From Schmidtea polychroa (taxonomy: Eukaryota): 64,000 nucleotides of DNA. Position numbers and translations under genes: made by a program. Positions within the stretch are counted from its first letter, which is position 1. Every line of letters begins with the position of its first letter. Of this stretch, positions 16,200 to 58,315 are shown piece by piece. The DNA lies in NCBI GenBank assembly GCA_044892525.1, contig CM097888.1, forward strand, positions 17,608,001 to 17,672,000, in the 5' to 3' direction. Under the pieces are notes generated by a model. The model did no database searches. It was not told the DNA's origin and worked only from the letters and a program-made list of their open reading frames with translations.

Positions 16200-16860
16200 A
16201 ATTTTGGACGTTATTAATTATAATGTATTTCATAGTTACGATACGGAATTTACAAAAGTAGAAGACAAAGACCATGAACGATAAATCAATCCCTTCACCA
16301 TATTTCTCTTATAATTAAATTCAGAATCAGTGTCAGTTAGTTTTCTATAAATATCTATCTCATATTGTTTCTCTATGCGTTGTATTAACAAATCCAAGAA
16401 AGCAAGTGCTGAATTTATCTTCGTGTCACATGTGAATGCAATGTTTTATATGGATTATTCATATAATGCAAAAATGACTCAAAATGCAACTGATTTTGAA
16501 ATATAAGAAAAATATCATCCACATAACGTTTATGAACGGTGGGTTTCATAAATTGGAAAAATGCAATTTCCTTTTCTAAACTTGCCAAAAAATTGAAGCC
16601 ATAGAACCCATAGCAACTCCATTTATTTGTAAATACCGTTCATTATTGAAAAGGAAATTTACTTTGGAAGTACCAAATTCAAGAAGTTTGCGAAATGCCC
16701 TTCCTTCCAAAATATGCTGTTCAGATATGCTTTCATTCGATAATAAGCAACAGAAATCAATAGTTTCAACCAATGTTACATTAATAAACAAAAAACAAAC
16801 ATCAAGCGAAGCCATAATTTCATCCACACTTTTTCTATAATATTGTGCGATGCAGGACAC
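16200..16860 (-). mobile_element. Penelope-like RT relic
   Basis: YLQINGVAMGS motif. Colinear similarity, with deletions, to the Penelope copy at 31250-31900. Confidence 0.8.
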
Positions 16861-17195
16861 AAATTCAAACTACCTTTACATGCGAATGGTAAATATAAAG
16901 GTGTACAGTCCCGAATATTAATTTAAATCATCATGCACTTTATGTGCCTTGTTTATCACATTCATTTAATTTAATAATATGTGATGCTACTTCCAGCAGT
17001 ATATACTGTAAAAATGTTTTTGGTATACTTCAACGTTTATACTGCCTATTTTCTGCATCTATGAAAAGGTGGGAAATATTTAAAAAATATTCAAATATTA
17101 CCTTTAAACCATTGTGTGATACTCGTTAGGAAGCTATAGTACATTCAGTGAGAGCTATATACGAACAATTTGAGCAAACTTGTAATGGTCTTGAA

Positions 17196-19284: not shown

Positions 19285-21454
19285 TTACAATTTAAAATTA
19301 TTTTGATAATCTTTTTTACTTAATTCTCTTACGGCAAGCTTTATAGGCCCGAGAACTTGCGATATTTCCTTTAAAACATCGATATTTGCATTACAAAATT
19401 GTTTTTGACCTAGTTCAATTAAGGGTGTATTTATACAGTTACTCAATTTTAAAAAACGATTTATCATAGGAAGAATAGAATTCCAGCGAGTCTTGCAATC
19501 GAGTAACAAGCGAAGTTTTTTGCCTTTTTGCACAAATACATGTTTTTGTTGAATACTGCTTCTTACAGATGACTTTTTAAAAAATTTTATTATTTTTCGA
19601 GTCTCAGTTAGAACGACTTCAATATCATTAGGGACTTCGGGAATATCACTTATAGTTTCATCATCAAAATTTAAATTGGAGTCAGAAACAAATAAATCAA
19701 CGTGCCCAATATTATCACTTTCATCAGAATAGTCATCATCGTCTTGGAATTCTTCATTTGAATCATCGTCTTCAGCATCAACATCTTTTGGCTGCAACCT
19801 TTTTTATAGAATACATCAAGGACACCAAGATGGATGCCATGGTTATAATACAGTTGAGAAAATGCTTGAAATTTTTTTCCGTATTTCACCATAACTGAAG
19901 CACCATCATGGGTCGATGCGACAACATCTGAATTCATATGGATTCCAAAATCCGCAAGCATGTCTTTGACTAGCTTTATTGTGACATCGCAATCACAAGA
20001 ACCCTCGATAGGTATGAGGCCAAGAACGCTAGAATACATTCCTGTTGAGTGAATTGTAAGATTCATATATCTTCTGACATTAATATCACTCCACTCATCT
20101 ATCGTAATACTAAATCTTTTTACTGATTTTTGTTCCTTAAAAAAGGAAATAAGTTTTCTCTTTTTATCTTCATAAAATTGCATAATGTGCTTCATCACCG
20201 TTGTTTCACTTCTTGGCATTTCGTAGTTCCGGCTTCTTACAAAACCTCGTATAGCTTCAGATAATGTTATTTCTCTGATACTAAATCCATCCTTAGCTGC
20301 ACATTTAGCTAATATTTCATTTAAAGATTCTCGGCCAAAAAAATTCAACATAGCTCCAGATTTGGGTTTCTTTGAAGAAGAAGTGTCATTTGTGTCTTCA
20401 CTTTTTTTATTGTACAAGAAAACGCTGTGTAGCTTTAGGTGGTTTATCATGCCAGTAGTATTGGCTCCTTGCCGTTGAATGGTGATTTGGCATAAGTTAC
20501 ATGTCGCCTCATTTTTTCGTTTTTTTGTAAAATGTTTCCACACTTTAGATTTATTTAAGGACATTTTGGTGACTTGTTTCTTGGTATAGATTTAAAAAAA
20601 GAAATTATATCAATTTAGAATTTTCCGAATAACTCAAAACAAGATTCGTAAAATATACATGAATTCTAAAAATAATAAAAAATATATTAATCGGGAACGT
20701 ATTTACAGATTTGTAAAAAGTTTACCTACATATAACAAAATTTATATTTTAAATAAAAGAAAGATCTACTAAGTTAACGTTTTTGTTGAAAGTCAGCAGA
20801 TAATTATAAATTAATTTACGAAATATTATATTATAACTACATGTAGTTTACTTTTCGAATTGTAATGCTTTAATAAATCGATCATACAGTAAAGATTTAT
20901 TAAAAAAAAATTAAGATGGGAATTATTATTATTTAGAATATAGTTATTTCGGTAAACAGAACGCGAATTCAATGGTTAAAATTATTGAGAAATTTTTATA
21001 AGTTGACAAGACTTACTTTTCAGTTTTGAGATCATGGTTTCACAAGTTTCACTGCTTCTACTAGTACTTGTATTCACAAAAATTAAACGTGTTTAGTTTA
21101 TGTGTTAACACTTTAAAAGTTCTCACAAAACTAAACTAATATAAAAATTTTAATGCTAAATGCCTAATATATAAAAATAAAATTGTAATTTCAACTAGGC
21201 AACTAGATTCAAATTCCTTTTTAAAAAAAAACAAAAAATCCGAGAAATTCAAATTTTCAATGCTTGAGCACATCACTTAGATTTAAATTAAAATCCACGC
21301 ATATTTTTAAAAAATATTTTTGGTTGATATGTTTAAAAAAAATCAAATACAAGCCCGAGTATAATTATCGTATTTACCCGGGTAATCGAGTAATCGAAAA
21401 AAACAATAAAATTCCGAGTACCCGAGTACTCGATACTCGAGGTTGGATTCACTA
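19285..21454 (-). mobile_element. BED-finger hAT transposon, frameshifted and 3'-truncated
   Basis: BED finger VWKHF...CNLC...TTGMINHLKLH, catalytic IDEWSD and THDGAS, and DCKTRWNS. Frameshift near 19797. Left end TAGTGAATCC at 21454 with CCGAGTA subterminal repeats. Confidence 0.85.
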
Positions 21455-22014: not shown

Positions 22015-22755
22015 GCTGTAATACTGTTTATATTTATGTATTAACGTATTAACGCTTAACCCTACACTGCATGACTTTTTATATTTGATAGGAAAAAACT
22101 TTCACTTAAACTGTAAGACGTTTTAAAAATTGATTTGGTAATACAAAACTATTGAGAATTACATTACGGTTTTTTTGTATTATATTGCAAATATAGCCAA
22201 TACAATTGTTGGGGTCACACCTCGGCGGACTACTCTACAATATTGGCTGGCCTAAGGGTTGATTGTCCATCTCGAATAAAATGTGCTACTGCCTTGTCAA
22301 CCTGGAGTGAAACCCCACATAACTTTCCTCCAACATAGTGCCCATGAATTACTTCACGTTGGTACTGCACTATGCAGGCGAGACGCCAGCAAGCAGGTGA
22401 GCTTCTGCCTTAAAACTACTCCTTGCTGAGGCCTCGACTTCCCATTCACGACTGCCGATAGAAGGGCTTACGTCTATCTCATTACACCACCGTTTGTCAG
22501 GATTTCGCGAAAAGCAAATCGGGGATTATTCATTAGCTCTCGAAGACTCTTTATTCATCCTATTTAATTAAAGTCTGGCTATTCATAAACGAAAGCATAT
22601 AAAACAACAAAATTTATTAATTTCAACGTTAAGATACAAGGATTCAGCTGTACACATCACGAATGTTTGTCGAAAGGAAAAGAAAAACATTACAACAAAT
22701 GTGGTTCGACTTCTCAACAGGCTTCAGGAATACCGCTGTGGTTCTCTTATTTTCC

Positions 22756-23496
22756 TCATTCGGTGTCGGCGAGTAACTCGTCTAGATTGAAGAATTCGGA
22801 GGCGTTTTCCTCCCATGTCACGCCAGCTGCTGAGATGATGCGTGCTGGGGGTCCTACTGTCAAGTCGATGGACACGCGAGAACTACTACCACCAGTTGAG
22901 TTTTCTATTGATGGGATGCTTGGCTTTGTGGATGCGCGCTCACGCTGTCGCTTCTTACGCTCTGCACGAGATAATTGTTTGCGCTTGGGTTTGCTCGTAG
23001 ATGTGACTTGCTGAAGCGCAGCGGGTACAGAGGTACTAGAAGTTGAGGTCTTACTAGTACCCGTGATGACGACGTCCGGTCGCATAGGTGACATTTCGGT
23101 TTCCACGCAGTCTCGACATGGTCTCTTGAGCGGTGGAGATGGATTCGATGAGGAGTTATGATGAGGCGGGAAGATGTTATCGGCCTCTTTGATTGGAATC
23201 TGTACGATTTTTTGTGTTGTGGCTGCTTGCACGTAGACTTTGTGCAGCGCTTCGGCCTGTTCTTTAATTAGGCTTCTTTGAGCACGGCTCTCGGCGATTA
23301 GAGCGTCACGACAGTGCTCACTCCTGTACAGTTTCTTTTGCGTCTCTTTCATTTGAGTGGGGGTAAACCAGGTGCCCTCCAACTCATCTATCTTCTTTTT
23401 ATATCGCCCGATCTGGGCCTGAAGATCCTTTATAATCGCGTTTTTGTCCGCGCAAGAGAAGCAAGGACGTAAGGTGGATTTCGTAGTTGGCAGCAT
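22756..23496 (-). CDS. orphan 246-aa protein: CxxC, coiled coil, second CxxC, S/T-rich linker, basic NLS-like patch, acidic C-terminus
   Basis: Intact ORF with an acceptor (TTATTTTACAG) 10 nt upstream of the ATG and AATAAA signals downstream. A diverged homolog lies at 57240-57863. Confidence 0.7.
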   Translation of the reverse strand: MLPTTKSTLRPCFSCADKNAIIKDLQAQIGRYKKKIDELEGTWFTPTQMKETQKKLYRSEHCRDALIAESRAQRSLIKEQAEALHKVYVQAATTQKIVQIPIKEADNIFPPHHNSSSNPSPPLKRPCRDCVETEMSPMRPDVVITGTSKTSTSSTSVPAALQQVTSTSKPKRKQLSRAERKKRQRERASTKPSIPSIENSTGGSSSRVSIDLTVGPPARIISAAGVTWEENASEFFNLDELLADTE

Positions 23497-24212
23497 AATT
23501 GATCAACTGTAAAATAAGGAACTATAACGACTTAGTAAATCTTTTATATGAATAAGATCGCGGGTCGAATGAAGTTGGTTGGTCACTGTCAGCAGTTGGC
23601 GGGTACTCAGAATAAGTAGGGGAATGGATTTCCCTTCTAGATGATTTGTAACATCGCTTTTATTTAACGAATAGCTCATTAAAGGGGTAGCATTGACGAA
23701 TGCAAATAAATCATTAACTTCGAAATTGAGAGGGTTTATTAATTACTAAATCGCCCTATAATTGTTGGTCTATAAAACATATCGAATTATTTAATGGTAT
23801 CTTTGAATATTGTTTAAAATACTCTTAATTATCATTTAAAATTTTTACCATGGTTATTCAAAATGTTATTATTCACGAACTCGAATTAATTTACCTATTA
23901 TTTAAAATTACTATTAATTGTTCGTTAGATCACTCGTAACACTCGAATTGACAATTTCCGACTCTATTATTAACGCTTGGTTTTAGTTTTCCACCATTAG
24001 TTGGCATGTCGTGATTATCCCCACTGAACTTAGTCATATTCGTTGCCGTTTAAGTTGATTAATTTAAATCATGGTAATCTATCATTATTAATTTAGTGGT
24101 TCGATTTTCCCTTTGAATTGTTTCCTGCAGAAGAATAATTATCGGTAGTTATTAATTTAGCCGTTTCGTTATTAGTCAAACTACTTTATCCAAAAATTCC
24201 TAGTGAATAGCC

Positions 24213-24740
24213 TATGTGATGTTACTGTGTGCGGTTATCTCTCGCTGGTCGCGTTACAGCACCAACTTTAAGCGAACTACCGTCTGTCACTCATGGAGCT
24301 ACTATGCTGATTAATCAATGTCCCTTCGTTATCAGTTGTAATGCTGGAATCTTTGCTAGATACGACATATGGAACACGGATTACTATGATTAGCCATGCA
24401 CTCGCTGCGTCATTATCATCCATCCTCGTGTGTATTTCTCAGGTAATTCTACAGATGGTGTTGCTACCCATATTCATGCTAGTATGCCTAATCAATGGAA
24501 AATTTATCTGCACCCACACATCATATGGACTAATTCTCAACCGTCCAGTTTTCCTGACAATTCTCTCACTTGGATTTTTTGGAATTATTTACTATGTGTG
24601 GAGATTTTCCTCAATTCTGGATATTACTTGATGGAAAAGTTCTACAATTCAACTCCCTACTCTATGTGGGTATTATTTCGATGTTAGACATCCTGATGTG
24701 ATGGTGTGGAAACCGCTGAACGGGTATTTCTAGTTTATTA
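24213..24740 (+). pseudogene. degenerate second cargo ORF of element copy A (hydrophobic, Cys/aromatic-rich)
   Basis: Long overlapping near-open frames (24341-24631, 24430-24687). Short matches VT.P.L.E and PFVI.C to 9265-9380. Confidence 0.35.
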
Positions 24741-25651
24741 ATAAGTATAAATTAAATAAAATAATTATCAGGAGTTATGTTTTTACTTTAATTTTAATAA
24801 AGGTTATTTATACATTAGAACTTTATCTATTTTAAACTGAAAATGAAGAAATATAGAACTTGTCCTGATTTTTGATTAACCGAACATAAGTGTGGAATTT
24901 AGTACGATGTTAGAGTCAAATTTGACTGATTACGACGATGCTAGCGAAGAGTTAGTCTCATGGTCGCATGGTTCCTCAGGATGGAAATTGAAGACATAAG
25001 ATCATTGTAGATGTAGCGTCCACCTCAATCACTGTACATTTCTGGACTCGTTCTAAATTCATGTCACTAATACAACACGTTTTTCCTCATTCTATCCAAT
25101 TTTGAGTCAACCTTCAGCGATTGGACCCGTGAAGAAGCCTTCACTTTTCGGCCCAATCTAGCTGCGTGATTGAAGAACCTCAGATCCGCCGGCTGAGCTC
25201 CCGAAGGCACCTCACACCATGATCTGCGGTTCCTCAACTCCACGTTACTCGCATCGAATTTTAATATATATCATATTGACGCATAAAACTCATAAAATAA
25301 ATCATAAAATTACTGAAACTCAGAATCATTTATTATAAGGTTTTCCAAAATCATTCATCAACCTACATTACATTCATACCTTTACTTATTCAGAAACTTT
25401 AAAGGAATCAGATGAAAAAGGATTAAGTTAAAACTTTATTTATGAATATTTATCATTACTGTTAACTATTAACTTTACAACATTAAGTGGTAATCAATGA
25501 AAACTCCTTACTATCGTGATTTGAATGTTGGGCTAAATCGAAATTTAATCTCCTGGAAATAGGTTGGCTTGAGTTCAGATGTTCCTTGAATGATTAGTAC
25601 TGCTGCTGCTGTGTGAAGTTCGGTTAGTTGTGATTGTTGTCGCTCTAGGTG

Positions 25652-25783
25652 TACCTGTGAAGTGTTTAGAATTAACGGTGAATTTTTTAGACTTTATCTT
25701 ACCTGTGAAGTGTTTAGAATTAACGGTGAATTTATGATTTTTGTGCTGGTTTATATATAAATTTTTGATGTGTGCGGACCAAT
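25652..25783 (-). promoter_or_regulatory. candidate promoter / non-coding first exon (CCAAT, TATA, duplicated splice donor)
   Basis: CCAAT at 25779-25783, TATATAAA about 25749-25761, then a 34-bp direct repeat (25652-25685, 25700-25733) with each copy carrying CACAG/GTA on the minus strand. Confidence 0.45.
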
Positions 25784-26594
25784 CAAAATTGAGTACCGCT
25801 TATTTCTATTAATTTAATATAATTTTCTTGTTTTTAGGTTATTTTTCTTATTTCTATTTATTTCCTTAATTTTCTTATTATTTATTAAATTTTCCTTATT
25901 CTACTTATTGTTCTATTGTCTTATTTTTATTTTCCTTATTTTTATTTTTTGTTTTAATTCTTGTTTTCCAACTATTGTTTCTTTTATATATTTTTTCTGA
26001 TTTTTATTCTTAATTTTGTTTATTTTAGTTTTATTTTCCTTAATGTTCTACTTTGTTAGCTTTTATTTTTTAACATTAAACCTCCGATTCAGCCCAACAC
26101 AATGTAATATGAGAGAACATTTACCGAGAACAAGAGCGAGACAGTTTTTAATCTAATAAGATAAATGTGTATCACCAGTGATACAATATGCAGTGTAGGG
26201 TTAATGTATTATATGTATACTCTTATTTCAATATAATTAAAATATAAAATTGTTTGGTTTTTTTAGTGAGCCGGCTGTTAACTCTTTGACAACACACCCT
26301 GTCCGTACCCCTACCTACTATTCGCCCATTGAAAATCTTTTACGTCCCTCAAAACAATTTGAGATCATTTAAATTTTCATATTAAAAATTCTCAAATAAT
26401 AAATTACATTAAATTCGTTTTATGTCAACTTAAAATTTGAAAAATAATTAATTTCAAGAAATTTCTGACGTCATCGATTTCTCTTCTCATGCTTTCACCT
26501 GAATGGACAAAATCGAAATTTTCTTCCTAAACACACAATGCTGCGCATCTCAATTGTTATCAGTCTACAAAATTATTTAATCAATAAGTTACCA

Positions 26595-29500
26595 ATGCTA
26601 TTTTTATTATGGATTATATATTTTCCTACTTTTATTAAATCAAATCATTATAATAGTTATTCAGAAAATATTCCGAAACCTTTGGATGGTACTCTTTATG
26701 GAGATGTCTACAATTGGGTGGACATGATTCAAAATTATATCAAACAATTGGCTTTAAATGGAATTAGAAAAGATGTTACTCAGTCTTTGTTTGATCAAGC
26801 AAAATACAAGTTAGAAATAAAAGATGGAATGGAAATCGTCAAAGATATCAGTGAACAGCTTGGTTCTTATTTATTCAATCGTAAAAAGGCTGCTTTAAGA
26901 ATAGCAAATGCTGCTGTGGAAATATATGATATGAATAAAAGGCGCAGTGCGAATTTCTCTTATGAATTTCTAAAAGATCTTCCAATTAACGAAGTTATGG
27001 ATTCTGATAATCCGAAATCTTTGCCTTCAATGAAATTTAATTCGTATTTCAAGCAAAATGTTACTGAAAAACATTCTACAATAAAAATTGCTGATGAAGT
27101 ACCTCGATCACTGAATACTACAATTTTTACAGTTCATTGGACGTATAAGTTAGAAGAAATAATGAAGGAAAATGCCAAAGAGGATACAAGAATTCGGTGG
27201 CAATATTTCGGTAGTACAGCAGGTGTTTTAAGATTATTTCCTGGTCGAGAATGGAGTAGTAATTTTGTTGGTTTTTATACAGATTATGATCCAAGAGTGA
27301 GAGCATGGTATATAACTGCGACAAGCGGACCAAAAGATGTTATAATACTTATCGATTGCAGTTTTAGTATGACTGGAGAAAAGTTTTCTATTGCCAAAGA
27401 GGTATCTAAAGCTATAATACAAACTTTGACTAAACATGATTATTTAAATGTGATATGCGCAAGAAATAGTCACTGGGATGAAATTGGAAAGTGGCACCTG
27501 TATAAATCCCATGCTTTAAGTTGTCGACCGGACAGTCTAGTGGCAGCTACAATTGCTCATAGAAAGGATCTTATTGAAAGTATTGATAACTTAGTCCCAG
27601 GAGGCACAAGTGAATTGGAAACTGGATTTGAATTAGCCTTTGATTTATTAAAAAGTGTTCCTAGAACTGGTTGTCAAAGTATCATTGTATTTCTTACTGA
27701 TGGTCGAGATACTGACGGTGAAAATGTTCGGTGTGGTCCCGGCTATTATACAAGGTCTGGATATGTTCCTGGACCAGTATGTAAGTACAACTGGACCAAA
27801 GTCCATTCTATTATAAATAATACAAATATGGGTCTGACTGTTCCAGCAAGAATATTCAGTTATTTAGTAAAGGATGATGGTGAAATGCTACCAGGCTCAA
27901 TTGCATGTGGTCATGGGGGAAGTATGCGTAAAATTGTATATGGAGAAAATATAATATCCCAGTTATCCAATTATTTTGAATTTTTAGCCAAAGTTACACA
28001 AAAGAAAGAGGGATTATGGACATCTCCTTACATAGATTCTTTGGGTACTGGATTACTTATTACTCATGCAGTACCAGCTATCAGTACTTTTGATGGAACT
28101 CTTCTTGGTGTAGCTGGAGTTGATGTCACATTGGAAGAAATAGAAATGTTAATCGCAAGATATCAGTGGGGATCTATGACTTCATTTTTTATAAATAATA
28201 AAGGAAATGTCATTTTTCATCCTTTACTGAAAGCCAGTACCACTTTAGAAGATGATCCAATATTTATCCACATTCAAAGTCTTGAACAAAACAAAGCTGG
28301 AAATCCTAAAGATTTCTCAAAAGTTGTGGACGATATGATAAATATGACAACAGGAAATCGCCGTATTATTGATGGTAGAAGAGGAACTCCAAAAGGAGAC
28401 TTTAAAGCTGGAGTAAAGTATGATAAAATGCCGTTAGAATATTATTATGCACCCTTGAAACATTCAAATGTATATTCTATTGCTATTGTTTTAGCCGATA
28501 CAGATAAAGTGTTTCGAAGACTTGAAGAACCCTCAAATATTAGTCAGCCAGTTCCAAGCTTCTTTAATTTATTAATCGAATATAACAGTACAAATGTTCT
28601 CAAAGAATATCCCAGTATTTTTAAAGAGCTTGACGTTCGATTTAATGAGACTAAATATCCAATGCTGAGAGTCACTTATAATTATTCAAGCATATTTTTT
28701 GCTCCAAGTGTGCACTGTGATCCTAGTAAATACTTTTTTGATGATGATCTGGCTCAAAAGACTTTAGACGCTCATAGATATATGAATGAATTGACTCACA
28801 ATTCTGATCCGGGATGTGATGTTCCAGAAGGAAAATATGCACAGGGTACAAGAGCTTATGTTCTTGTGACTGAATCTATAGAAAACCAATGGAAAATTAG
28901 AAATTTTGAATCAATAAATGAAGTTACATGGACTTATGTTGGTATGAGGTCTGGGGTTTTTCGAACTTATCCAGGACACCGATCAACTAGGCTTTATGAT
29001 CCAACAAAGCGTCCTTGGTACCGAAGGACTTTGGCTAATCCAACTAAAATTTCAATTTCTACACCTTATTTTGACGCGGCTGGGAGTGGAAAAATCATAA
29101 CAATATCACAAGCAGTCTTTGAAGGAATGCCTACATTATCAAAAGAACATTGTAAAAATATAAATTCGTTAAAGCCAGGGGGCTGCCATTGTATAAAAGA
29201 TTCAGATTGTTTGAGTGGATACTGTTACATCAGTAAAGCACCAGGTCCAGATGCACATGAAACAAGATGTGCTACAGAAAGAATAGAAGCTATAACAAGT
29301 CTTGATATAGGCTATGATAGTTTTCATAAAAGATTATTTCAAATTATGCAGGCTTCAGATGGTGTAAGATCATGTAATTCTTCTTATAAATGCCCGGATG
29401 GGCATCTTGATTGCTGGACAAAATGTTATATTTTTGATGACAGAGCAAATATTATTATGGCTTCAGAATTTGTTGCTGCGACAGCTTTCGACACAAATAA

Positions 29501-30182
29501 GTATCTTGGGATTACAGTGGGTAAGAAAGAAAGTGAAATAATGAAAGATTTAATTTACCATCATAAGTTTTTTCAAAGAAGTGAATCCATAGATTTTCAA
29601 GTAAACCTACAAATATATAATCTATTTAATATTATTTAGGGAGCATGCACTTACGTGTCTAGTTTTCCACAAGTAACATTAAAAGGTATTCCGAGAACTC
29701 CGGAAGATTTTGACAACTATTATAAAACGAGAGGACCCATTCCTAGTTTTATTAATTCATATAGCTGCATTCAAGATGTAGTGACTTTTTCAGCAAATAT
29801 ATCTGCATTAGGTCCAAGCAGAATGATTGTTGGAAATGTGTCCGGCCCATGCACAACTGGCTTTTATTACGTCACCAGTATGCCTGAAACAAATCTTTTT
29901 CTTTTAGTAGTTGAAAGTCGATATGACAGAAGTGATTCGTTTTTTTATAATTTTAATTGTGAAATATCAAGAAAGATTGTAGCAAGTGGAGCGTACAGAA
30001 TTATTAATGGAACTTGTGCTCACAAAGAAACGAACAAGCATACCCTTGCTGAAAAGGGTACTTGTCCAGAAATAGTAAAGATAAATATGACTTGTGAATA
30101 TACCATAGCTATGAATTATCAACCCAACTATAAACTGCTAGTTATTAATACATTATATTTAGTTTACACTTTACTGAACTAG
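26595..30182 (+). CDS. CACHD1: VWA and Cache domain protein (alpha2delta/CACHD1 family), exons 26595-29600 and 29640-30182, about 1182 aa; alternative start 26538
   Basis: Signal peptide, RWQYFGSTAGVLRLFPG, VWA MIDAS DCSFS...TDG, Cache motifs PYIDSLGTG and YDPTKRPWY...TPYFDAAGSG, a 39-nt GT-AG intron, and a hydrophobic C-terminus. Orthology (CACHD1 versus CACNA2D) is not resolved. Confidence 0.85.
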
Positions 30183-30597: not shown

Positions 30598-32334
30598 TTA
30601 AAAATACTCAAAAGTATTTACTGCATTCTGCACATTAATTTTCGGATTCAATGATTTTATCAACAACGCCTCACAAATCACACGTTCCCAATAATTATCG
30701 AAATTTTTTAATAAAATTTTAAAATCAGACATACCTATTTTAATCTTACAGCCTTTATTGTGCTCACCAATATGGGTCAAAGCCTTCGGTCTACAATGTT
30801 CTCGAGCTCGAATACAGAGATGACGGGAAGTCTCTCCAATGTATGTGGCATTACACCCATTACATGTAAACTGATAAACGAGATCGGAACACAATTTAAC
30901 CGGAGTTTTTGACTTATTAATAAACATATTGCGTACTTTCCATAAAGTGGACACTATCCTATAGTTTAAATTCCCTAACTGCTTTCTTATCTTCACTTTA
31001 TAATCCTTAAAACCTTCTGAGTACGGCAAAACTAACACAAATGTAGGCTCATCATCCTTGCTCACACTATTTAATTTATTTAACTCATCAGACTCACACA
31101 CCTTAACAAGATCACACCCAGATTTTCTCAAACATGGATCATTATGATTTTCAATAAATTTGTCAACAGTCTCTTTCACCATAATTACTAAAAAGAATTT
31201 TGAATAACCGTTCTTCATTAACAATTCAACCAATATGTCAACACTTTTTACTGAATTTTTAAAAGTAGAAGACAAAGACCATGCACGATAAATCAACCCC
31301 TTCACCATATTTCTTTTATACTTGAATTCACAAAAACTTTCGGAAGAAGTATAGAGACCAGTATCAGTTGGTTTTCTATAAATCTCTGTCTCATAGTGTT
31401 TCTCTTTGCGTTGTATTAACAGATCCAAGAAAGCAAGCGATGATTTTGTCTCCGTTTCACATGTGAATACAATGTTTTTATGTAGACTATTCATATAATG
31501 CAAAAACGGGTCAACATGCCTCTGATTTTCAAATATAAGAAAAATATCATCCACATACCGTTTATAAACAGTGGGTTTCATACCTTGGAAAGATGCAATT
31601 TTCTTTTCTAAGCTTGTTAAAAAAATTGAAGCATCGTTGGTGCTAAAGGAGAACCCATAGCAACTCCATCTATTTATTGATACCATTCATTATTGAAAAG
31701 AAAATTGATTTTTGAAGTTGCAAATACAAGAAGTTCACGAAATGCTGTTCTATCCAAAATATGATGTTCAGAAATATTTTCATTCCATAACAAGCAACAT
31801 AATTCAATTGTTTCAACCAATGGTACATTAGTAAACAGACTACAAACATCAAACGAAACCATAATTTCATCCATACTTTGTCTATCATATTGTGCAATGC
31901 AGGAAACAAATTCAAAACTATCTTTACATTCAAATTCTGATCGTATTAATGGTTTCAATAATCCATCCAAAAATTTGGCTATTTTATACTGGGCAGTGCC
32001 AATCATGGATAAAACAGGTCTCATCGGCACGCCATCTTTATGGATTTTTGGAAGCCCATACATTTTCGCTGGTTGTGATCCCATTGGGCGAATAGATTTG
32101 CTTATTTTTTTTTAATTAATTTATTTAGTATCTCTTTCAACAAATTCCCATCCTTAAGAGGAGGCTGTATTCGAGAAATCTCTATTTTCACAAACTGTGG
32201 AGCATTCAAAACATCATTAAGCTTATTTACATATACATCGTGGTCGAGAATTACCAATCCATTTCCTTTGTCAAACTTGCATATATTGATGTCTTTTTTA
32301 GCTAAATTTTTTAATACAGTAAAATCTTTAATAT
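30598..32334 (-). mobile_element. Penelope-like retroelement, RT plus GIY-YIG endonuclease, frameshifted
   Basis: KFDKGNG, MYGLPKIHK, SFDVCSLFTNVP, DGVAMGSPLAP, YKRYVDDIF, and LVYQFTCNGCNATYIGETSR. Confidence 0.95.
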
Positions 32335-38500: not shown

Positions 38501-41500
38501 CTAGGAAAATATTCGATCAGAAATTTGTAGAACACCTAAAGATCGATATTAAGTCCATACAAAAAGGAACAATTTTATCGAAAAACGTAACAGCTGATCA
38601 TTTGGCTTTGAAACATTTCAAAGTAGTCATGGGATACCCGATAAAGATTGGATCGGAATATAAATATGACATTGAAGATACCGATGAATTTGTCAAAGGT
38701 TACAAAATCACAGAATCCACTTGTAAAAATCTAACGGATTTGGCTAGAATTGTATCAGCTGGGTGAGTTTTTTTATTGCTTAATTGATAATTAATTGAAA
38801 ATTTATATTTTAATATGAATAATAATTTTTAAAAACTTTAGAAAAGTATTGCCAGTTCTTATTCAAGGAGAAACCTCAGTTGGGAAAACCAGTCTCATTA
38901 CATATCTTGCAAAACTGACGGGTCATATTTGCCACCGAGTTAATAACCATGAAACTACCGATATTCAAGAATATATTGGTTCATATGTCCAGCAGAGTAC
39001 GAGTGAAACAACTAGTTCTTTTGTATTCAAAGAAGGGATTCTAGTTCAAGCAATGCGCCATGGCCATTGGATAATTCTTGATGAATTGAATTTGGCACCT
39101 ACTGATATTCTGGAAGCACTTAATCGAGTTCTGGATGATAATAGAGAGATTTTCATTGTCGAAACACAAACCACAATAAAAGCCCATCCGATGTTTCGAT
39201 TGTTTGCCACCCAAAACCCATCGGGATCGTATGGAGGAAGAAAAGCTCTTTCTAGAGCCCTTAGAAATCGATTTATTGAACTCCATTTCAACCCCATACC
39301 GAATTGTGAATTGGTGGAAATTCTCGATGAATCCTGTAAGATACCCAAGAGTAATGGTCGTAAAATGGTAGAAGCAATACGAAAATTACAAACTGCTTCT
39401 CAAGATTTGGAAAAAATCTCTCACTGCAAACAAAATTATATTACTCTTCGGGATTTATTTAGATGGGCTAGAAGAGTTTATTATGAACATAACAAATGCG
39501 ATAGATTTTTTGATTGGAATAGAACAATGGTTGAAGAAGGCTATTTGTTGTTAACGGGAAAAGCTCGATCAAAGGACGAAGTGAGCTTGATTGCGAATGT
39601 TTTGAACGAGGTTTTCCGAGTTTCTGATGTTCAATTAAACGATGAATGGTTTTACTCAACAAACGGATCAAACGTTACAAAAATAATTCTTGAGAAATGT
39701 TCCCAATTGCCGAATATTGCTAATATCGAATGGACCTTTGATTTCCGCAGAATAGCGGCGTTGCTTATTAGAGCGATTCAATGTGATGAACCAGTATTAT
39801 TGGTTGGCAATACTGGATGTGGAAAGACAACAATTTGTCAATTAGCTGCAATGCTCAATAATCAAGAACTCATGACAATAAACTGTCACATGCACACAGA
39901 TGCCAGCGATTTCTTGGGAAGTCTGAAGCCAACTGTTAATAAAACTGAGGTATTTATTTATTCCAATAATTATGAGCATCCACTTATTAACCAAATTACT
40001 AATCATTATTAATGAATATTAAATAATCAATATTAAAATAATTATTTTAAATAAATTTTCGAAATATAACATTTAATAAAATGAACAGCAGTACTGTTAT
40101 TGTTCCGATACCATTTCTATCAATTCTAAAATTAATTTTGTAGAATCCAACTCAACTATTCGAATGGGTTGATGGACCACTCGTTGTTGCAATGAAGCAA
40201 GGGAAAATGTTTCTTATTGATGAAATATCCCTGGCCGAGGATTCGGTTTTGGAAAGATTGAACAGTGTTTTGGAGAAAGATCGTAAATTGACACTGGTTG
40301 AAAATAGTGAAGCAAACCTGTTGTCGAGTGAAACGGAAATTCAGTCGATTCAAATTTGTGCTGATAGAAATTTCCAAATTGTTGCTACTATGAATCCGGG
40401 AGGAGATTATGGGAAAAAAGAACTATCACCGGCATTGAGAAACCGTTTCACTGAAATTTGGTGTTTCTCTGATTCTTGGTACACTACCGATAGCGGTAGT
40501 AACGATTGGATTCAAATTGCTACAAAAAATCTCACATCCATTACCGAAAGTGGAAATTCAAAATCTGTTGCAGAAATCATCGTGAGATTCCTGTTAATTG
40601 TCCAAAAAATATCTCATGAGATAAAGTATTTTTCACTTTTTCACAAAAATCAATATTGAATCGATTTTTTAAAATTAGGTTTTCAGTGGTAACAATCCGA
40701 GATTTACTGGCGTGGGTAAATTTCATCAACATATCGATCGGAAATCAAATTCCACTTTATCAATCGATTTTTCACGGTGCATATATGGTTATTATCGATT
40801 CTCTCAATGACAAGTTGAATAAATCATTTTACGAAGAATTGCTGATAAGGGAACTCGATAATTTAGTGAAATCGATTTTGCCAGATATTGTCCAATGTCA
40901 CGATTTTAAATCCAACTGTTTCGAGTTGACTGTCAAAGAAAACAAAGTCGGAATTGATCCGTTTTACGTTGAATTGGGTTCGTATTCCGATTGGAGTTTG
41001 TTGTCGAATCTGGAAAATTCATCGAAAAATTTCCAATACAGTTTCAATAACAACACAACCGGATCGAATATCTATCGATTATTGCGTGCACTACAGATCA
41101 GTAAGAAACCGTTGCTATTGGAAGGGAGTCCAGGCGTTGGTAAAACGAGTTTAGTTACTCAACTCGCGAAACTTGTCGGATTTAGAGTTGTGAGGATAAA
41201 TTTATCGGAACAAACGGACGCTAATGATCTGTTCGGTGGTTTCTTACCGAATGAGAACGGGAAAGCCGGTGAGTTGTCATGGAGAGATGGGCCATTTTTG
41301 CAGGCATTGAAAGCAGGTGATTGGATATTGTTGGATGAAATGAATTTGGCGTCTCAGTCGGTGTTGGAGTGTTTAAATGCCTGTCTAGATCACCGGGGCG
41401 AGATATTTATTCCGGAAATCAATCAGACATTCACAGTGAAACCAGGAACAACTCGATTGTTTGCCTGCCAAAATCCACTCAGTGAAGGTGGCGGCCGAAA

Positions 41501-44500
41501 ATGTCTTCCGATGTCTTTTGTAAATAGATTTACCCAAGTCTACATGAGCAGCCTATCAGACAGCGATTACAGATATATTCTCACCTGTCTCTATCCATCG
41601 ATAACTCGAGAAACGATTGGTTTCATTGTCGATTTCGTGCGAGATTTACGTGAAAATGTAATAGTGGAGAAGAAATTCGGCGTTAAAGGCAGTCCATGGG
41701 AATTCAATTTGCGTGATTTGTGTAGATGGTGTGATTTAATGGTCAAGCATCAACACGATAACCATGAGCCATCGTTTTTTGTGAATTTGTTGTTTATCGA
41801 TCGGTTTAGAACCAAGGCAGACCAGGAGGCATGTGGAAAGCTTTACAATGAATTGGCCAATAAATCCCAATTTGCAAGATTCATTCCCAACAGTTTGGAC
41901 TTGTATATCACTGGTGAAGCATTGAAAATCGGACAGACTGGAATCCGCGTAAATATTGGAAATACGACTGAGAACAGCAAGAAATTCGATAAACATCTCT
42001 TATTGGCTGGACAGTTGTCAATCCTGGAATCGATTATGCAAACAGTCGATATGGGTTGGCTTACGGTTTTGGTGGGACCTGCTGGAACTGGAAAAACGAC
42101 AATTGTCCAATTGTTATCCGACATCACCGGAAATACTCTTAGATCAATGTCAATGAATTCGGCAATGGATACGAGTGATTTATTGGGATCTTTGGAGCAA
42201 CAAAAGAAAGGTGGTAAATTTAAATGGGTCGATAGCACTTTAGTGAAAGCATTACGACAAGGAGATTGGTTGATTTTAGACACGGTAAATTTCTGTTCCG
42301 CATCTGTTCTCGATCGATTGAATGGACTGTTGGAACCGAATGGTAGTCTTTTGTTAACTGAACGCGGATTAGTTGATGGTGATATACTGGAAGAAATAAA
42401 GCCCCATAAAAACTTTCGACTCTTTCTACTTCTCGATCCAGAATGTGGTGGAGAAATCTCTAAAGCGATGAGAAATCGAGGCCTGGAAATATGCCTGGTT
42501 CCTGATAATCTGGAACTGACTCTAACCGATAACGATTTATTGGCAATATTATTGACCATTTATAAATTGAGTGTGAAAAATGCCGATAATTTATTGAGGT
42601 TTCACAAAACAATGATTTTAGCCCAATCGGAAACATCGAAAATAAAAATCGGTAATATCAATTCATTGATTCAAGCAGCAAAATTGATCAATGATGGAAA
42701 CTCACTGGATCAGAGTTTGAGATCGGTTTACGGTGATATTCAGATGATTTTCAATGTTCGTGAGGATGTCAATAGATTTATTGGTGATTGTAATGAAGAA
42801 GCCATTGATTATGAGGAAATGGATCAAGATGGATCCTCCTTATTGTTTAATATCATTACCCAACCAAAGAAATGTATGTTTTTACGGCATGCAAAAGCTC
42901 TAAAGAAAACATTAAAAAGTCACCCAATTATAAGCGATAATGAAAAATTGATTGCGTGCCAATTATTCCTTCAATATTCTACACTTGATGACTTGCCCAA
43001 TCGTTTAGAGTTTGTAGAATTTGATGAAGAATTAGCAACAGTTTGCAGAAAGATTGTGAATGCCATTCATATATTCCCCAATTCGACCAATCGTTGTCTG
43101 CCAATTGATTTTCGATGGTTACCGAACTGGAGAGAATTTCAATTGGTTGATTTTCGAGAAATTAATCGATTTCTATTTTCGATTTACAATATCGAAAATA
43201 ATGTTTTGGAATCGAAGAGCTTGGATATCCCAGCAAATATTCGTCCCAGTGAATTGACTCAGACTGCAATTATGAAATTCAATGTTGCGCAACTCGCTAA
43301 ATTCGTTAGCGCTGGAAAATTATCCCAGAATCATCTTTCAAATCTCGTTGGATTCGATAAATCGATCGGTCGATTTATTGATCAGTTTCTATCAATTGAT
43401 ATGTCATTGAACCTTGGCGGAGTGGATAATTTCTTGGAAATGAGAAATGTTTGTAAACTGTTCAAACGATTTATCGAGACTTACCCCAATGAAAGCTTTC
43501 ATTGGCGAAGCACTTGTGTTTATCATTTAACATCGATTTTCAATTGTTTGACTAATAAAGAAAATAGTGCTTTTGATGAACTATTGGAAATTTGCGAACA
43601 GATATTGGATAAAATTAACAAAATCGATTTGAGTCATTGTTTGGAATTCATTGAAAATGACGAGATCAAGGAAGCGGGAATTAAACGAAATGATCTGAGA
43701 ATCAATTATCCTCATAGACCACTGGCAATTACTGAGAGCGAGATTGAAAATATACAATTGATGGGTTCGGATAAATCGATATCGGTATGGAAACCCTCCG
43801 GTGAAGAAGAATTGAAAAAAGGATTGTGTAAAATGTTTTTATCTTTGTCTCCTATCAAAGAACAGGAAAATATGAATATCAATGAATTAGTAAATCATTT
43901 CGATGTTGAAACCGTTCGTATATGGCCATTGACTTTGAATTTATTGTCTCATATTTTCAACTCATGTACCGGACCGAATTCCATCGAATCAATTCAGAAA
44001 TTTCTGTCGGGTAATTCAGAAATCAAGAATTTTCTGCCTCCTTTGCCATTTAATCTCGAAGAAAAGTTACCGGAATTTTCGGATTTGGAAAAATTCTCCA
44101 CTAAATTCACAAGTCTTTCTGATTGGTCGAATTATATCATTCGCCAGGGGCATTTAGTTAAGGCCATTTCGAGTTGCAGTTATCATTTTGACAGTGATAC
44201 TGATGAGTATCAACTAGTTGTCGATTCCTCATCGTCATACTTGCAATCGCAAATCAATAAAATCTGGAAAAATCCAGACTGTGCTGTATTCTTATTGGTT
44301 AATGGGCGTCGATGTCATAATGATACGATTGGTTATTTCAATAGTGTTTGCACTAATAACTCAACTAAGCGATGCATTCGCTCGATTGAAACTCGTAAAT
44401 TGCAACTGGAATTTTCGAAACAACTCTATATTGAATGTGCATCAATACTCACAAGTGAGCAGATACGAATTACCCGTGAATTGAAGTTATTAAAGGATTT

Positions 44501-47500
44501 AAGCAATATACAACGCCATTGTATAGAGGCATGTTGGAATGGATTGGGTAGTTTAGAGGAATGGTTGAAAACACGGTTTCCATGGTTTTTGGCTCTAGAA
44601 AATGATATTTTCAATTTAAACCAAACAGAAAATCCCGACGTAATGTTAGCCATTGGAAAGCTCTGGATTAGATGGGGTTGTGTTCAATTGAAATTATTTA
44701 CACTCATGGAATCGTTAGATCCGCAATCGCAACTGTTTTGGGAATCGAAATATCTCAGTGAGGAATTGGATCAGGTTTACAAGGAGAAACAATTGGGAAA
44801 TCTCTACCGAGAATATTTAACGGGTGTTAAACAAAGCAACATTACCGAACGATGCTGGAGTGAGCATGGGTTACAACATCCTCTTCTCCATTCAATGTCA
44901 ACAAGAATCGACCAACTACAAACCAGCTTGTCGAAATTAACCGAAAACATTGGATTGAGACCTTGCAGTGATGAAAAATACAACGATTTACGATTGAAAA
45001 CTTTGAGATATCTTTCAAAATATGGCTGGAATGCTTTCTGTAACGAATCAATGGAATCGGTATTGGAATTCGATTCCACATTCAGTACTGAATGGAGTTT
45101 AGCATCATCGGAAATATTGAATTTCTACTTCCAGCAAGAAAACAGCCTAATGTTCCCAGATCTCATTGAACCGCTGACATTAGGAATTTCTCGAGTGTTA
45201 GTTGGAATTGAAATAATCGATAGTAAAACGAAAAAACCAAACGAAAAATCTCAAAACGCATCTAAAATCTGTGAAATATTCTGCCAGTTTCCCAACAATA
45301 ACATTAATGAAATGGTGGAAAGGATTTTGAATGAAGAAACAGCAATTCTCCGGTGTTGCCAAAATCTCATCGGAGATTGCACTCCATCAATGCTCGCTAG
45401 AATCCATATCCGATTGTTGCACTTGTGTTTGCGGTTGTTGGATTTTTCACAATCTATAAAATCCGAAAAATTAACACTTCTCCATCGATTGTTATCGATT
45501 TTCAGCAATTTATGGACCAAGCAACAACAGAAACAACTGGAAAAAGAAGAAGCTGAATCTTCGATGTATGTCGAAAGGAATAAACTTACTGAGAATTTAA
45601 CTGAAGAAGAAATTGAAAATCTGGAAATATTTATGAATGTTTGTCCAACCGAACAACAGGGCTTCGATGACCAACACATGCAAATGTCTGCTTCTATGAG
45701 TTCAGCTGCTACGAAACTCCATGAAATGCAGCAACGATTGACTTCAATCAATTCCGGGTTGACATTAGATGAAGATACGATCCATTCCGTTGTCAATTTA
45801 ACATCTCGTATCTTGAATAGCAGCAATAACAGTTCTATTGACGAGAAGCTGGATTCAACGGTGTTTAGAGATTGTTATCGGTTTGCAGCTGCTTTGATTA
45901 GTGCAGATAATCACAGCATTCCCTATGATGAATGTAATTTGTTTGCCGCCAATTTCTCTGCACTCAATTGGGAATATGATAGTTTATCGCACGGTGGATC
46001 TGAGATTACAATTGGACGTCCTCATGATATCTATCAAGATCCGATTGATGTTGATAATCTGCTTCAAGCTCAGAAAATCCTGCCGAATATAAATATCAGC
46101 GTTACGAAGTTATTGGGAATCTATCCCGAACACACAACACTAATCAATATTCAAAAGAAAATCAATAATATTCTAAATTTGTCTGGCGATTACTCGTTAA
46201 TTGTGTTTATCAATAATGTCGAGCGATTAATCCATGAAATTAACCAATGGGAAATAGTAGCAGCCCGCCACGTGTCATTGATTCAACACGTGGATGAGTT
46301 GAACAGTTTGCTAGTTAGCTGGCGACATCAAGAACTGTCAATGTGGGAGAACACGATTTCCACTGCCAATTGGCAATTGGAACGTGCTGTTTCTCAGGAA
46401 TTTTTCAATCACTACAACCTGATTGTGCAAGAATCCAATAAAACACAATACGATAACGATTTTGAGTCGATAAATTTGATTTTGGAACCGATTTTGAATT
46501 CTCTCCACAATTCTACAGTAGGAAACTTTGAATATCGATTGAAAAATATGAAACTATCGATTGAGTCTTTGATTTCAAATCAAGAAATCGATAATCGATT
46601 CAAAGATCGACTCCAATATATCCTGTTAAATCATTACGATTTCTATCGACTTTATCTCGTCAACGTCCAAGAGCATTTATCCAGTGAATACAAAAGAATC
46701 GGAAAGGAATTAAAAGATTTTATCAAAACGAAAAGATGGGGCAAAACACCACCGAAAATAACCGATGTGCTAAAATGCCATAAAATCGTTTTCAAATACA
46801 AACGTCAATGGAGTGGAATCATAAATCAACCGTGCACGAAATACTTTGTTCTTTCACCGATAAATGCGCTGAAACAAGTCAATTTAATTGATATGGCAAA
46901 TAGTGCCGAATGTGGTATTGATTTTTCGAAATCGAAATTATCTGATTGGTGCGCAAATATGTTGGAATATTGTCGGGAAATGTGGGAAACTATGGAGAAC
47001 TTTCAAAGAGAAACTAAGAAATTAGAAGAGATATCAGTTGTTCATGCTAAAAATGAAGATGATAAAGAAGTTTTGGAGAAAAAATGGAGAATGAGTGTGA
47101 AAAATCTTCAACAACGTAAGAGAAATTGTGTCACTCAATTTGTGAAAGAATTGCGAGAAATGGGACTCGTGGCGCATGGATCAGATTTACCGAGGAAAAC
47201 CGCGTTAATGACTCATTTGCCATTGGGAGATATTGAAAATTTACAATTGCCCTTTAATACCATTCGCTGTCTCAGTCTCCGGTTAGAAGTCGACGATTCA
47301 GATAAATCAGAAGAGTTTGCAAAGTTCAATGATTTCAAAAACCGCTTGATAAGTATTTGTGATCATTTGATATCGATTGCATTCACAAATACCACCAGAA
47401 TTAAAAATTTCCAAAGTGACTTTAAAATCGTTCAAAATTCAATCGAACTTTTATCCAATACTTGCCAATCGGAAATTATCGCTATTCAAGATCCGACAGA

Positions 47501-50500: not shown

Positions 50501-50679
50501 TTTTGAATTTGAAAACTGTCATTAATGATGGATGTGATTTTGTCAGATTTCTTGATGTATTTCCCTTTCAGAATTATACAATTCTTCAAAATGCTACGAA
50601 TTTGCCAACTCTTTTAACTAATTTGTTACGGCAATGGTTTGAGTTGTCATCAAGGGACGATATGGGTCCTGGTCGATAA
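35560..50679 (+). CDS. MDN1: midasin AAA ATPase, 14 exons, 4672 aa
   Basis: Six AAA modules (GPVGSGKS, SETGCGKT, GETSVGKT, GNTGCGKT, GSPGVGKT, GPAGTGKT), a linker, a D/E-rich tail and the MIDAS domain DNSKS...SDG ending LRQWFEL. Exons 35560-35562, 35608-35661, 35707-36336, 36396-36695, 36741-36862, 37218-37424, 37472-37616, 37658-37989, 38036-38414, 38461-38762, 38842-39949, 40144-40625, 40679-50447 and 50494-50679 are phase-consistent with GT-AG introns. Confidence 0.95.
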
Positions 50680-57239: not shown

Positions 57240-58315
57240 TTGGAAGAGAATCATTCACAGCGCATCCTCATTCGAGAGCAATCGCGGGCGCTTCACCAAA
57301 TTTAAACCCACTCGGAACTCAAAAATTGTATCGCCGTATGTCCTGCTACAGACCAAGGAAATATCTTCCCCAGTCACCATTTGACTGAAGGCCCGAGTTC
57401 ACCGAAGCGATCTACATGTCGAGGGCATGGAAACAGTGCGGTGACGTCGCTCATTCCAGAGGTAATCTACGTTGGCACTAGTGTGGCCCCAGTTACCTCC
57501 GCGGCGCATATCTTGGTCCTAGCTCCACCCAACACCTCCGAAAAACTGAAACATAAATCTCGCATGTGGGCATAATTGACTCCGCGTCGACGCGAGAAAC
57601 AGACACAGTCAGAAGCCGCTCTTGCTGCATCTCATGCCAAAGCAGCAGCCGATCTAGTCGTTGCAATTCAATCTTCAAACCGACCGTCGTACCGAATAGT
57701 ATCTGCCGCCGGTTCGGGAGGGACGGAGGAAGGGCAAGTGGACTTTGTCCTCGAATAGCTATTGCGGGAGGCCAAACTGATGCGTTTTCGGAGTCGTCCA
57801 TCCAAAATCCAACCTAACGATCTCATTTCTCCTTCAACTCCACTCGTCCGTAGGATGAATTAACTCTGTTGATTTACATTCGTATGATTTGCATGGCCTG
57901 GATTGATAGTCTTTAATGAATAAAAATATATGTTTGCTATCGAACGTTGTTACTTGAATGTGTATAGTTGTATCTTCTCTGAGTGCGGTTCAGGATGGAT
58001 GACAGTTGATTGATTTAAATGAGTCACGCAGTCAAACTTTGATTTACGTTCTCCAACAAGGACCAGTTGGATGGTAATAGTTCTGATTAGTAAGAGGTAA
58101 GACCTTCTATCGGCACTCTAGAACCCTTATAGGAGTACGATAGGGGAGTAGTTGTAATGCAGGGCACTTTGTCGTATGATTGCATTGTTATGTGAGTATC
58201 TATAACGGTTGACTGTGAAATGCTGAGTATGATGACTAAAGAATAAGACGACCTGCGCATGCCACTTTCATAGACTGCCTAAATGATGTATGTCAACTTG
58301 AAGGGAACTCCAAAA
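57240..58315 (+). mobile_element. 5'-truncated orphan-ORF element (copy B) with pseudogene 57240-57863
   Basis: One frame with 3 stops: QRILIREQSRALHQI*...NIFPSHH...RIVSAAG...FVLE*LL. The motif CCTTCTATCGGCACTC is at 58103-58118 and a degenerate terminus CTCCAAAA at 58315. Confidence 0.75.

Follow-up and report, generated by a model that had tools for sequence, protein, structure and literature searches.

A gene under purifying selection within the LTR of a Burro-type giant Gypsy element of Schmidtea polychroa, possibly encoding a Rev-like regulator

Planarian genomes are filled with Burro elements, which rank among the largest known LTR retroelements, and solo LTRs are usually treated as non-coding scars. 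LTR-carried ORFs that are expressed by splicing include MMTV sag, the HIV nef overlap and foamy bel/bet; in these cases the coding sequence is in U3, ahead of the start site, and only the 3' LTR expresses it. The architecture of the Burro/GYPSM1 giant Gypsy-like LTR retrotransposons of planarians has been described (PMC6431247), and Burro elements are reported to be repressed by PIWI (PMC8532177). In the C. elegans Gypsy element Cer1, the accessory protein CERV is made from a spliced mRNA and is needed for export of the unspliced genomic RNA (PMC10309623). The response element of HERV-K Rec, RcRE, lies in LTR sequence and is also found in solo LTRs (PMC10746203, PMC12724133). HBZ of HTLV-1 is an antisense product with N-terminal LXXLL motifs and a C-terminal bZIP (PMC4776189).

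The window, a stretch of 64,000 nucleotides of the S. polychroa genome, contains an ORF at 22756-23496 on the minus strand that encodes a 246-aa protein. An earlier note on this DNA had proposed that the protein is element-encoded, and the ORF indeed lies inside a solo LTR of a Burro-type giant Gypsy element (22207-26099, minus strand, 3,893 bp). The solo LTR has TG...CA ends (TGTTGGG...CCCAACA) and is flanked on both sides by the 4-bp target-site duplication ATTG, and its empty site appears as a 3,897-nt skip joint in contigs of two runs. Same-strand copies of the ORF are often paired about 26 kb apart. Four such pairs were read in 10-kb pieces, and each pair proved to be the two LTRs of one element; one example is a full element of 29,552 bp with 3,841-bp LTRs at 100% identity. 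The gene lies wholly within the LTR and is present in both LTRs of full elements. It is on the gag-pol strand in four lineage-A elements, and also in the elements of lineages C and D (see below), and is therefore not an antisense gene.

The element interior encodes a RING ORF, a giant polyprotein and a RING-MATH ORF. The polyprotein pieces are consecutive and match in frame (Retrotrans_gag, zf-CCHC, Monjiviricetes_fusion, RVP, then RVT_1, RT_RNaseH and rve), with a viral fusion glycoprotein (env) between gag and protease, and ankyrin repeats are also present. The cargo thus comprises ankyrin, MATH/TRAF and RING domains, with BIR in lineage D only, where the element is about 35 kb long and has 4.8-kb LTRs. 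A primer-binding site is common to all three lineages (L223:3991-4016, L219:6023-6048 and L215:5940-5968), and resembles a tRNA-Pro site. Ahead of the 3' LTR, the sequence departs from a plain polypurine tract. The leader before gag has tandem repeats of about 75 nt (L223:5400-5660) with very deep coverage in DNA contigs. A YAG also stands 0-3 nt ahead of the ATG in several internal accessory ORFs (RING, RING-MATH, BIR-RING and others; L223:4333, L033:6722, L217:6220, L215:6734 and L221:6564), which suggests that the element as a whole is expressed through complex splicing or trans-splicing.

The host element is a Burro/GYPSM1-type, env-bearing giant Gypsy element, assigned by its architecture as in PMC6431247. 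The described elements are likewise about 30 kb long, with multi-kb LTRs, a Gag with CCHC knuckles, an env in frame between gag and protease, RT-RNaseH-integrase, and ankyrin, MATH/TRAF and RING domains (PMC6431247). The review text covers internal domains and accessory ORFs, with no mention of a gene, introns or an RNA hairpin in the LTR (PMC6431247). No description of a gene inside Burro LTRs was found in the literature searched; the review figure, Repbase and the extended data of Grohme 2018 lay outside the search and may already draw the ORF. The element family is already known; the LTR gene and the LTR anatomy are unusual and well supported.

The motifs listed in the earlier note are all present in the translation: CFSC (residues 12-15), a coiled-coil stretch (17-40, with six of seven a/d positions of the heptad pattern hydrophobic), NIFPPHH (107-113), CRDC (127-130), an S/T-rich linker, a basic patch (170-188) and LDELL (238-242). 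The layout is that of a CxxC, two long helices split by GTWFxP, an FPxHH, another CxxC and a variable linker, then a basic helix and an acidic-hydrophobic tail with a net charge of -7 and six W/F/L per 20 residues. The AlphaFold model (pTM 0.36) has two confident helices, at residues 13-40 and 46-96, and places two more at 177-189 and 238-243; its support for the protein extends to helices only. The LxxLL is weak alone, being present in 4.8% of shuffles. The G+C content of the ORF region is about 40%, versus the 22-35% typical of the window.

No named relative was recovered for the 246-aa protein. Pfam has no match at cut-off, just weak coiled-coil matches, and a PDB sequence search found no significant match. 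Foldseek on the AlphaFold model, a check that had been suggested earlier, found no match at E 0.001 in the viral and PDB libraries. A wide structural search returned generic helical hairpins only (best Z 9.7, a score that does not stand apart from the next ones), and none of the fold searches matched a DNA-binding fold. In the ESM Atlas the best clusters are unnamed (0.83-0.84, within the chance range), and the nearest named cluster is the delta antigen, a weak match at 0.78. Shared-word homolog searches with the window protein, the alignment and the lineage-D protein gave no matches. The protein is thus neither a gag/ORF1 nor a known host protein as far as Pfam, PDB and fold searches reach. 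The description as an orphan holds in that there is no named or Pfam match at cut-off, but the genome has 150 or more copies of the gene, and 17 unnamed proteins are distant homologs.

In a protein search of the genome (781 Mb), the best 150 of 7,157 candidate places all match at 82-100% identity, and no internal stop is found in 143 of the 150 scored copies, a set biased to intact copies because it is ranked by protein similarity. For 28 full-length copies, each compared with the window copy (two of 30 loci were dropped for length), dN/dS is 0.08-0.31 over a dS of 0.04-1.13, and 0.10-0.14 for pairs with dS above 0.1. Among 29 loci picked by downstream non-coding DNA, which overlap heavily with the protein-picked loci, 23 are intact and dN is far below dS in all. 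The compared LTR copies are related, so these counts are not independent events. The dN/dS comparison proposed in the earlier note thus gives about 0.1 and not a value near 1, and the LTR gene is under purifying selection. Within lineage A, constraint is strongest in the tail (pN/pS 0.062), about 0.1 in the N-terminal 105 residues and weakest in the S/T linker (0.54). The pairwise counts show no sign of positive selection, with dN/dS low everywhere except in the linker.

That the ORF frame is a neutral by-product of LTR sequence is hardly credible, even though the frame is known here from sequence alone. Such a reading is contradicted by the selection data, with dN/dS near 0.1 up to a dS of 1.1, and by the homologs across lineages and other datasets. 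The constraint is also specific to the frame. In 29 copies the ORF frame has a pN/pS of 0.164 and 0.03 stops per copy, and the other five frames have 7-17 stops per copy and a pN/pS of 1.0-2.5 (0.285 in the antisense frame that shares third positions). The ORF frame alone is both open and constrained, which is more than chance.

Four lineages of the gene were distinguished. Identity within lineage A is 63-100%. Lineage B has decayed, and by sequence comparison a second remnant in the window (about 57245-58160, plus strand) is a decayed piece of a lineage-B LTR with a broken homolog of the LTR gene. Lineage C is intact, with about 38% protein identity to lineage A. Lineage D is a young 35-kb family with BIR and an in-polyprotein MATH; its 159-codon frame, in the same place within the LTR, reaches 32 bits against a profile from which it had been left out, compared to 16.3 for the best of 1,000 shuffles. 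The RT of lineage A is 98% identical to that of lineage C and 90% identical to that of lineage D, so the LTR gene changes much faster than the RT, yet under purifying selection. An exhaustive HMMER search added the 17 unnamed distant homologs (E 8e-15 to 7.5e-4). Thirteen of these are joined to host domains with no relation to them, apparently because gene predictors have absorbed an LTR exon; relatives of the LTR gene would then already be mis-fused into host gene models.

The core common to the lineages and the distant homologs consists of the coiled coil, a TW-x-P kink, the second helix, a P-x-H-H-like motif and the basic helix. The basic helix is kept in lineages A-D, where the patch is lysine-rich (9 of 15 residues K/R in lineages A, C and D), and the distant homologs have an arginine-rich motif of the NRRRRERRR type (8-11 arginines per 15 residues in 5 of 14 segments). 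The motifs on which the earlier note leaned turn out to be lineage-specific. LxxLL is present in 10 of 11 lineage-A proteins and in none of the three lineage-C proteins, and CxxC is missing from lineage D and from all 14 distant segments aligned (three short matches were omitted, and some segments are without the N-terminus). A hydrophobic-acidic pattern of the F-x-L-D-E-L-L type is still seen in lineages B and C, and nine Cys/His are conserved across lineages A-C; lineage D and P0011 have neither the tail nor the Cys/His. In the distant homologs P0003, P0005 and P0010, a PPPY motif and an acidic-aromatic stretch after the arginine-rich helix replace the lineage-A tail. Some copies have a VIDLT-like motif, presumably of the SUMO-binding type.

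The lineage-D LTR also has a second ORF (L215:4496-4861, 121 aa) with an acidic N-terminus and a C-terminal KKGRPRKR, which we take to be AT-hook-like. It has its own acceptor, in phase with the shared upstream donor, and the lineage-D LTR possibly carries two alternatively spliced genes.

From comparison of the LTRs, the whole LTR reads as a complete transcription unit with a promoter, two predicted introns, an ATG-free leader and poly(A) signals, all on the minus strand of the window. A reverse CCAAT box (GATTGG, 25774-25784) lies in a block conserved across lineages A and C. The TATA box is at 25750-25757, with the start predicted 30 nt downstream at 25727. Predicted exon 1 (25703-25727, 25 nt) ends at the donor CAG/GTAAGA and is followed by predicted intron 1 (25655-25702, 48 nt). 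Predicted exon 2 (25512-25654) is non-coding, without an ATG, and ends at the donor ATA/GTAAGG. Predicted intron 2 (23507-25511, 2,005 nt) has its acceptor, TTCCTTATTTTACAG, 10 nt ahead of the ATG, and the ORF at 22756-23496 would be the coding part of exon 3. Two AATAAA predicted poly(A) signals (22618-22613 and 22555-22550) lie 3' of the stop, and a conserved block near the LTR 3' end (22455-22474) contains a third donor-like GAC/GTAAG and CCTTCTATCGG. An HDV-like ribozyme reading of the CCTTCTATCGG block was dropped by inspection; the block folds no better than shuffles.

The same order is kept across lineages that are hard to align: reverse CCAAT, TATA, a donor at a distance of 54-57 nt, another donor, a hairpin, an acceptor right before the ATG, AATAAA past the stop and the third donor-like block. 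An acceptor stands just ahead of the ATG in 16 of 20 ORF starts versus 31 of 545 other ATGs. The predicted leader exons are ATG-free in all 11 LTRs whose promoter was found by script (8 of 19 loci were unscored), and with intron 1 included the leader has 5 ATGs versus 33 expected. A poly(A) signal lies within 330 nt past the stop in 10 of the 11 promoter-scored LTRs. In lineage D the first Met is at or after codon 49, past the conserved TWFSP core, and the donor and both acceptors are phase-matched. Contigs of runs guessed to be RNA cover parts of the ORF and have no joint at the predicted splice sites, which speaks neither for nor against the predicted splicing. Unlike the MMTV, HIV and foamy ORFs in U3, the ORF here follows the predicted start, which would make every LTR a self-contained gene. 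Each intact solo LTR would then be a protein-coding gene under selection, able to supply the protein by itself.

The last 25 nt of predicted intron 1 are an exact copy of exon 1. Among LTRs with introns of 45-50 nt, the last 22 nt of intron 1 equal the last 22 nt of exon 1 at 22 of 22 positions in 14 of 15 LTRs and at 21 of 22 in the other, and exon 1 is just 52% alike between LTRs. A sixteenth LTR has a single unit and no donor. The exact repeat starts 26-34 nt past the TATA in 9 of 10 two-unit LTRs, and in the tenth it is shortened by a mismatch. The simplest reading is a template jump: strong-stop cDNA made from 5'-spliced RNA, from which intron 1 has been removed, would jump onto the unspliced 3' copy, so that the end of intron 1 would be overwritten with exon-1 sequence in each reverse-transcription cycle. 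Local gene conversion of a tandem duplication would also produce such a copy, but it is the weaker account, without an explanation for borders at the start site and at the splice junction. By the template-jump account, the rewritten intron end would be a natural record of the transcription start and of the RNA form that is reverse-transcribed.

The rewriting of exon-1 sequence implies a packaged RNA from which intron 1 is removed and in which intron 2 is presumably kept. The copied RNA should still hold intron 2 because the LTR would otherwise lose it. A search by exact-junction pattern in one subfamily found no LTR copy without intron 2. Since the packaged RNA would keep intron 2, the element would need both a spliced RNA for the protein and an intron-retaining RNA for the genome.

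Within predicted intron 2, folding and covariation identify a conserved RNA hairpin (25164-25243, minus strand, which is the sense strand of the gene; fold z -3.6) with a nearly invariant, UUCG-capped top and a covarying lower stem. Across 16 distinct copies, pairing holds in 97% of cells and 9 of 31 pairs are compensatory. Shuffles reach the hairpin in 0-1 of 500 cases on four of five measures, and 'further pair types' is not exceeded (473/500), with the caveat that these controls are inflated by relatedness of the sequences. Lineages C and D have different, equally strong hairpins in the same place (z -2.4 to -6.0). Rfam has no match within the LTR, hairpin included. A likeness of one hairpin arm to the primer-binding site was considered and rejected, as it is not conserved (5 of 17 rows differ).

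A nuclear trans-acting role, as the earlier note had suggested, is plausible for the LTR protein. It may be tethered to RNA and regulate splicing, export or poly(A) read-through, similar to Rev, Rec and CERV; argued by analogy, this is the preferred reading, although it is held tentatively and falls somewhat short of probable. It is preferred because a regulator made from spliced RNA, together with a structured intron kept in the genomic RNA, is the logic of Rev/RRE, Rec/RcRE and CERV. The LTR's own promoter would drive a doubly spliced mRNA for the protein, whose N-terminal helices would oligomerise. Its basic helix would bind the intron-2 hairpin, and the acidic-hydrophobic tail would recruit a host export, splicing or 3'-end factor. 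Binding would favour the intron-retaining, full-length element RNA and allow its export, or read-through of the LTR poly(A) signals. A more specific form, in which the Burro LTR is a complete Rev/RRE-type circuit with a TATA promoter, a spliced regulator gene and its hairpin in its own intron, switching from the short mRNA to the 30-kb genomic RNA with hundreds of solo LTRs acting in trans, is possible but doubtful. If true, a Gypsy element would have evolved an analogue of Rev independently, and the protein would represent a new family.

The likeness to HIV Rev, HTLV Rex and HERV-K Rec lies in a small protein from fully spliced RNA, predicted here, with a basic or arginine-rich helix, oligomerisation helices, putative in the LTR protein, and a structured RNA, here a candidate response element (PMC10746203, PMC12724133). 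The LTR protein differs in having no conserved leucine-rich export signal and a larger coiled-coil domain, and the RNA here is a single 80-nt hairpin in place of a branched RRE-type element of about 350 nt (PMC10746203, PMC12724133). The gene and the candidate RNA element are both inside the LTR, and there is no demonstrable homology to the Rev/RRE system. A PDB sequence search found no homology to solved Rev/Rex structures, and the window protein has no match to Pfam REV (PF00424). One of the 17 distant homologs has a sub-threshold REV match over its arginine-rich motif (E 0.0013, 19.1 bits versus a cut-off of 22), which is probably compositional. The canonical CRM1 export-signal pattern is not conserved in lineages A-C (15 proteins), and although two distant homologs contain a class-1a pattern, so do 33-43% of shuffles, which is chance level. 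With CERV the LTR protein shares a Gypsy-type element and, as predictions here, a spliced mRNA and a Cys-containing oligomerising domain (PMC10309623). CERV is a large three-domain protein with a demonstrated export role, and the gene here lies wholly inside the LTR and may, by inference only, have the same role (PMC10309623). The sequence and fold searches described above gave no link to CERV.

The earlier note had likened the protein to HTLV-1 HBZ. Both are retroelement-encoded and have a basic region, a coiled coil and an LxxLL-like motif (PMC4776189). The analogy fails on orientation, since the LTR gene is sense to gag-pol inside the LTR and HBZ is an antisense bZIP protein, and on domain order, which is opposite; an adjacent basic-zipper is absent and the LxxLL is not universal (PMC4776189). 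Here the coiled coil is N-terminal, the basic patch is about 75 residues downstream and the LxxLL is C-terminal. As about 75 disordered residues part the basic helix from the coiled coil, the LTR protein is not a bZIP. It is a member of neither the Rev nor the HBZ family.

Several features of the protein fit other roles. In lineage A, constraint peaks in the acidic tail, which is activation-motif-like and counts against a Rev-like regulator. It is instead what would be expected of a transactivator of the LTR promoter with a dimerising N-terminus, an NLS and a C-terminal acidic activation motif, after the logic of foamy Tas, Tax and Tat, and of all the readings it comes nearest to the idea of the earlier note. 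The tail's charge and its W/F/L content suit this role, as does the persistence of the hydrophobic-acidic pattern in lineages B and C, and the nine Cys/His of lineages A-C could bind zinc. Because the tail is so strongly constrained, a transactivator keeps some standing, but it is unlikely. Lineage D and P0011 lack both tail and Cys/His, no DNA-binding fold was matched, and the basic helix is separated from the coiled coil by the long disordered stretch. The coiled coil and the basic helix are the parts most widely kept, and together with the RNA anatomy of the LTR they favour regulation at the RNA level over a classic transactivator. The Rev-like regulator has weaknesses of its own, in that an export signal is not conserved, the REV match is sub-threshold, and the lysine-rich basic patch may be no more than a signal for nuclear localisation. 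The hairpin could just as well serve packaging, dimerisation or constitutive export, with Gag or host proteins reading it.

The protein could also be aimed at the host, as an anti-silencing factor or adaptor against piRNA/chromatin repression or by altering cell state, expressed early from many solo LTRs. This would suit the other host-aimed cargo of Burro elements (RING, TRAF/MATH, BIR and ankyrin), the much faster divergence of the gene than of the RT between lineages A and C, and the VIDLT-like motif in some copies. However, that motif is not conserved, the pairwise counts give low dN/dS outside the linker with no sign of positive selection, and the hairpin and the intron logic are left unexplained. 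Even with the PIWI repression of Burro elements on its side (PMC8532177), a host-directed role is improbable. That the protein coats or packages the genomic RNA, as an RNA chaperone or a particle component, with the hairpin as a packaging or dimerisation signal, is slightly more improbable still. Coating of RNA is generally compatible with a coiled coil plus a basic helix, the delta antigen is the nearest cluster with a name in the Atlas, and the hairpin would be restricted to intron-retaining RNA, but the Atlas score is within the chance range and the element already has a Gag with zinc knuckles. A separate early spliced mRNA, as predicted, also fits a regulator better. For the Rev-like regulator, the LTR anatomy supplies concrete candidates: a start site, two junctions, a response element and the regulator itself.

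The solo LTR is inserted in a miniature element of roughly 244 bp (window 22056-26204) with CCCTACACTGCAT inverted ends and TTAA flanks, presumably piggyBac-like. The miniature element lies beside hAT transposase remnants (zf-BED at 19671-20564), and transposon debris is also found among the ORF's neighbours. From their translations, the neighbouring genes in the window appear to be a homeobox gene, an alpha2delta-like channel subunit, midasin and a proteasome subunit, and the host genes in the window are intron-poor in their 3' parts. The promoter end of the LTR is head-to-head with the long uninterrupted alpha2delta-like ORF (26538-29639, plus strand), about 440 bp away (window 26099-26538), so the LTR could affect expression of this gene. 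Two related Penelope-like remnants (RT with GIY-YIG) at 30598-32084 and 16242-16869 are about 15 kb apart. The midasin-like gene at 40785-50525 is a single open frame of 3,246 codons.
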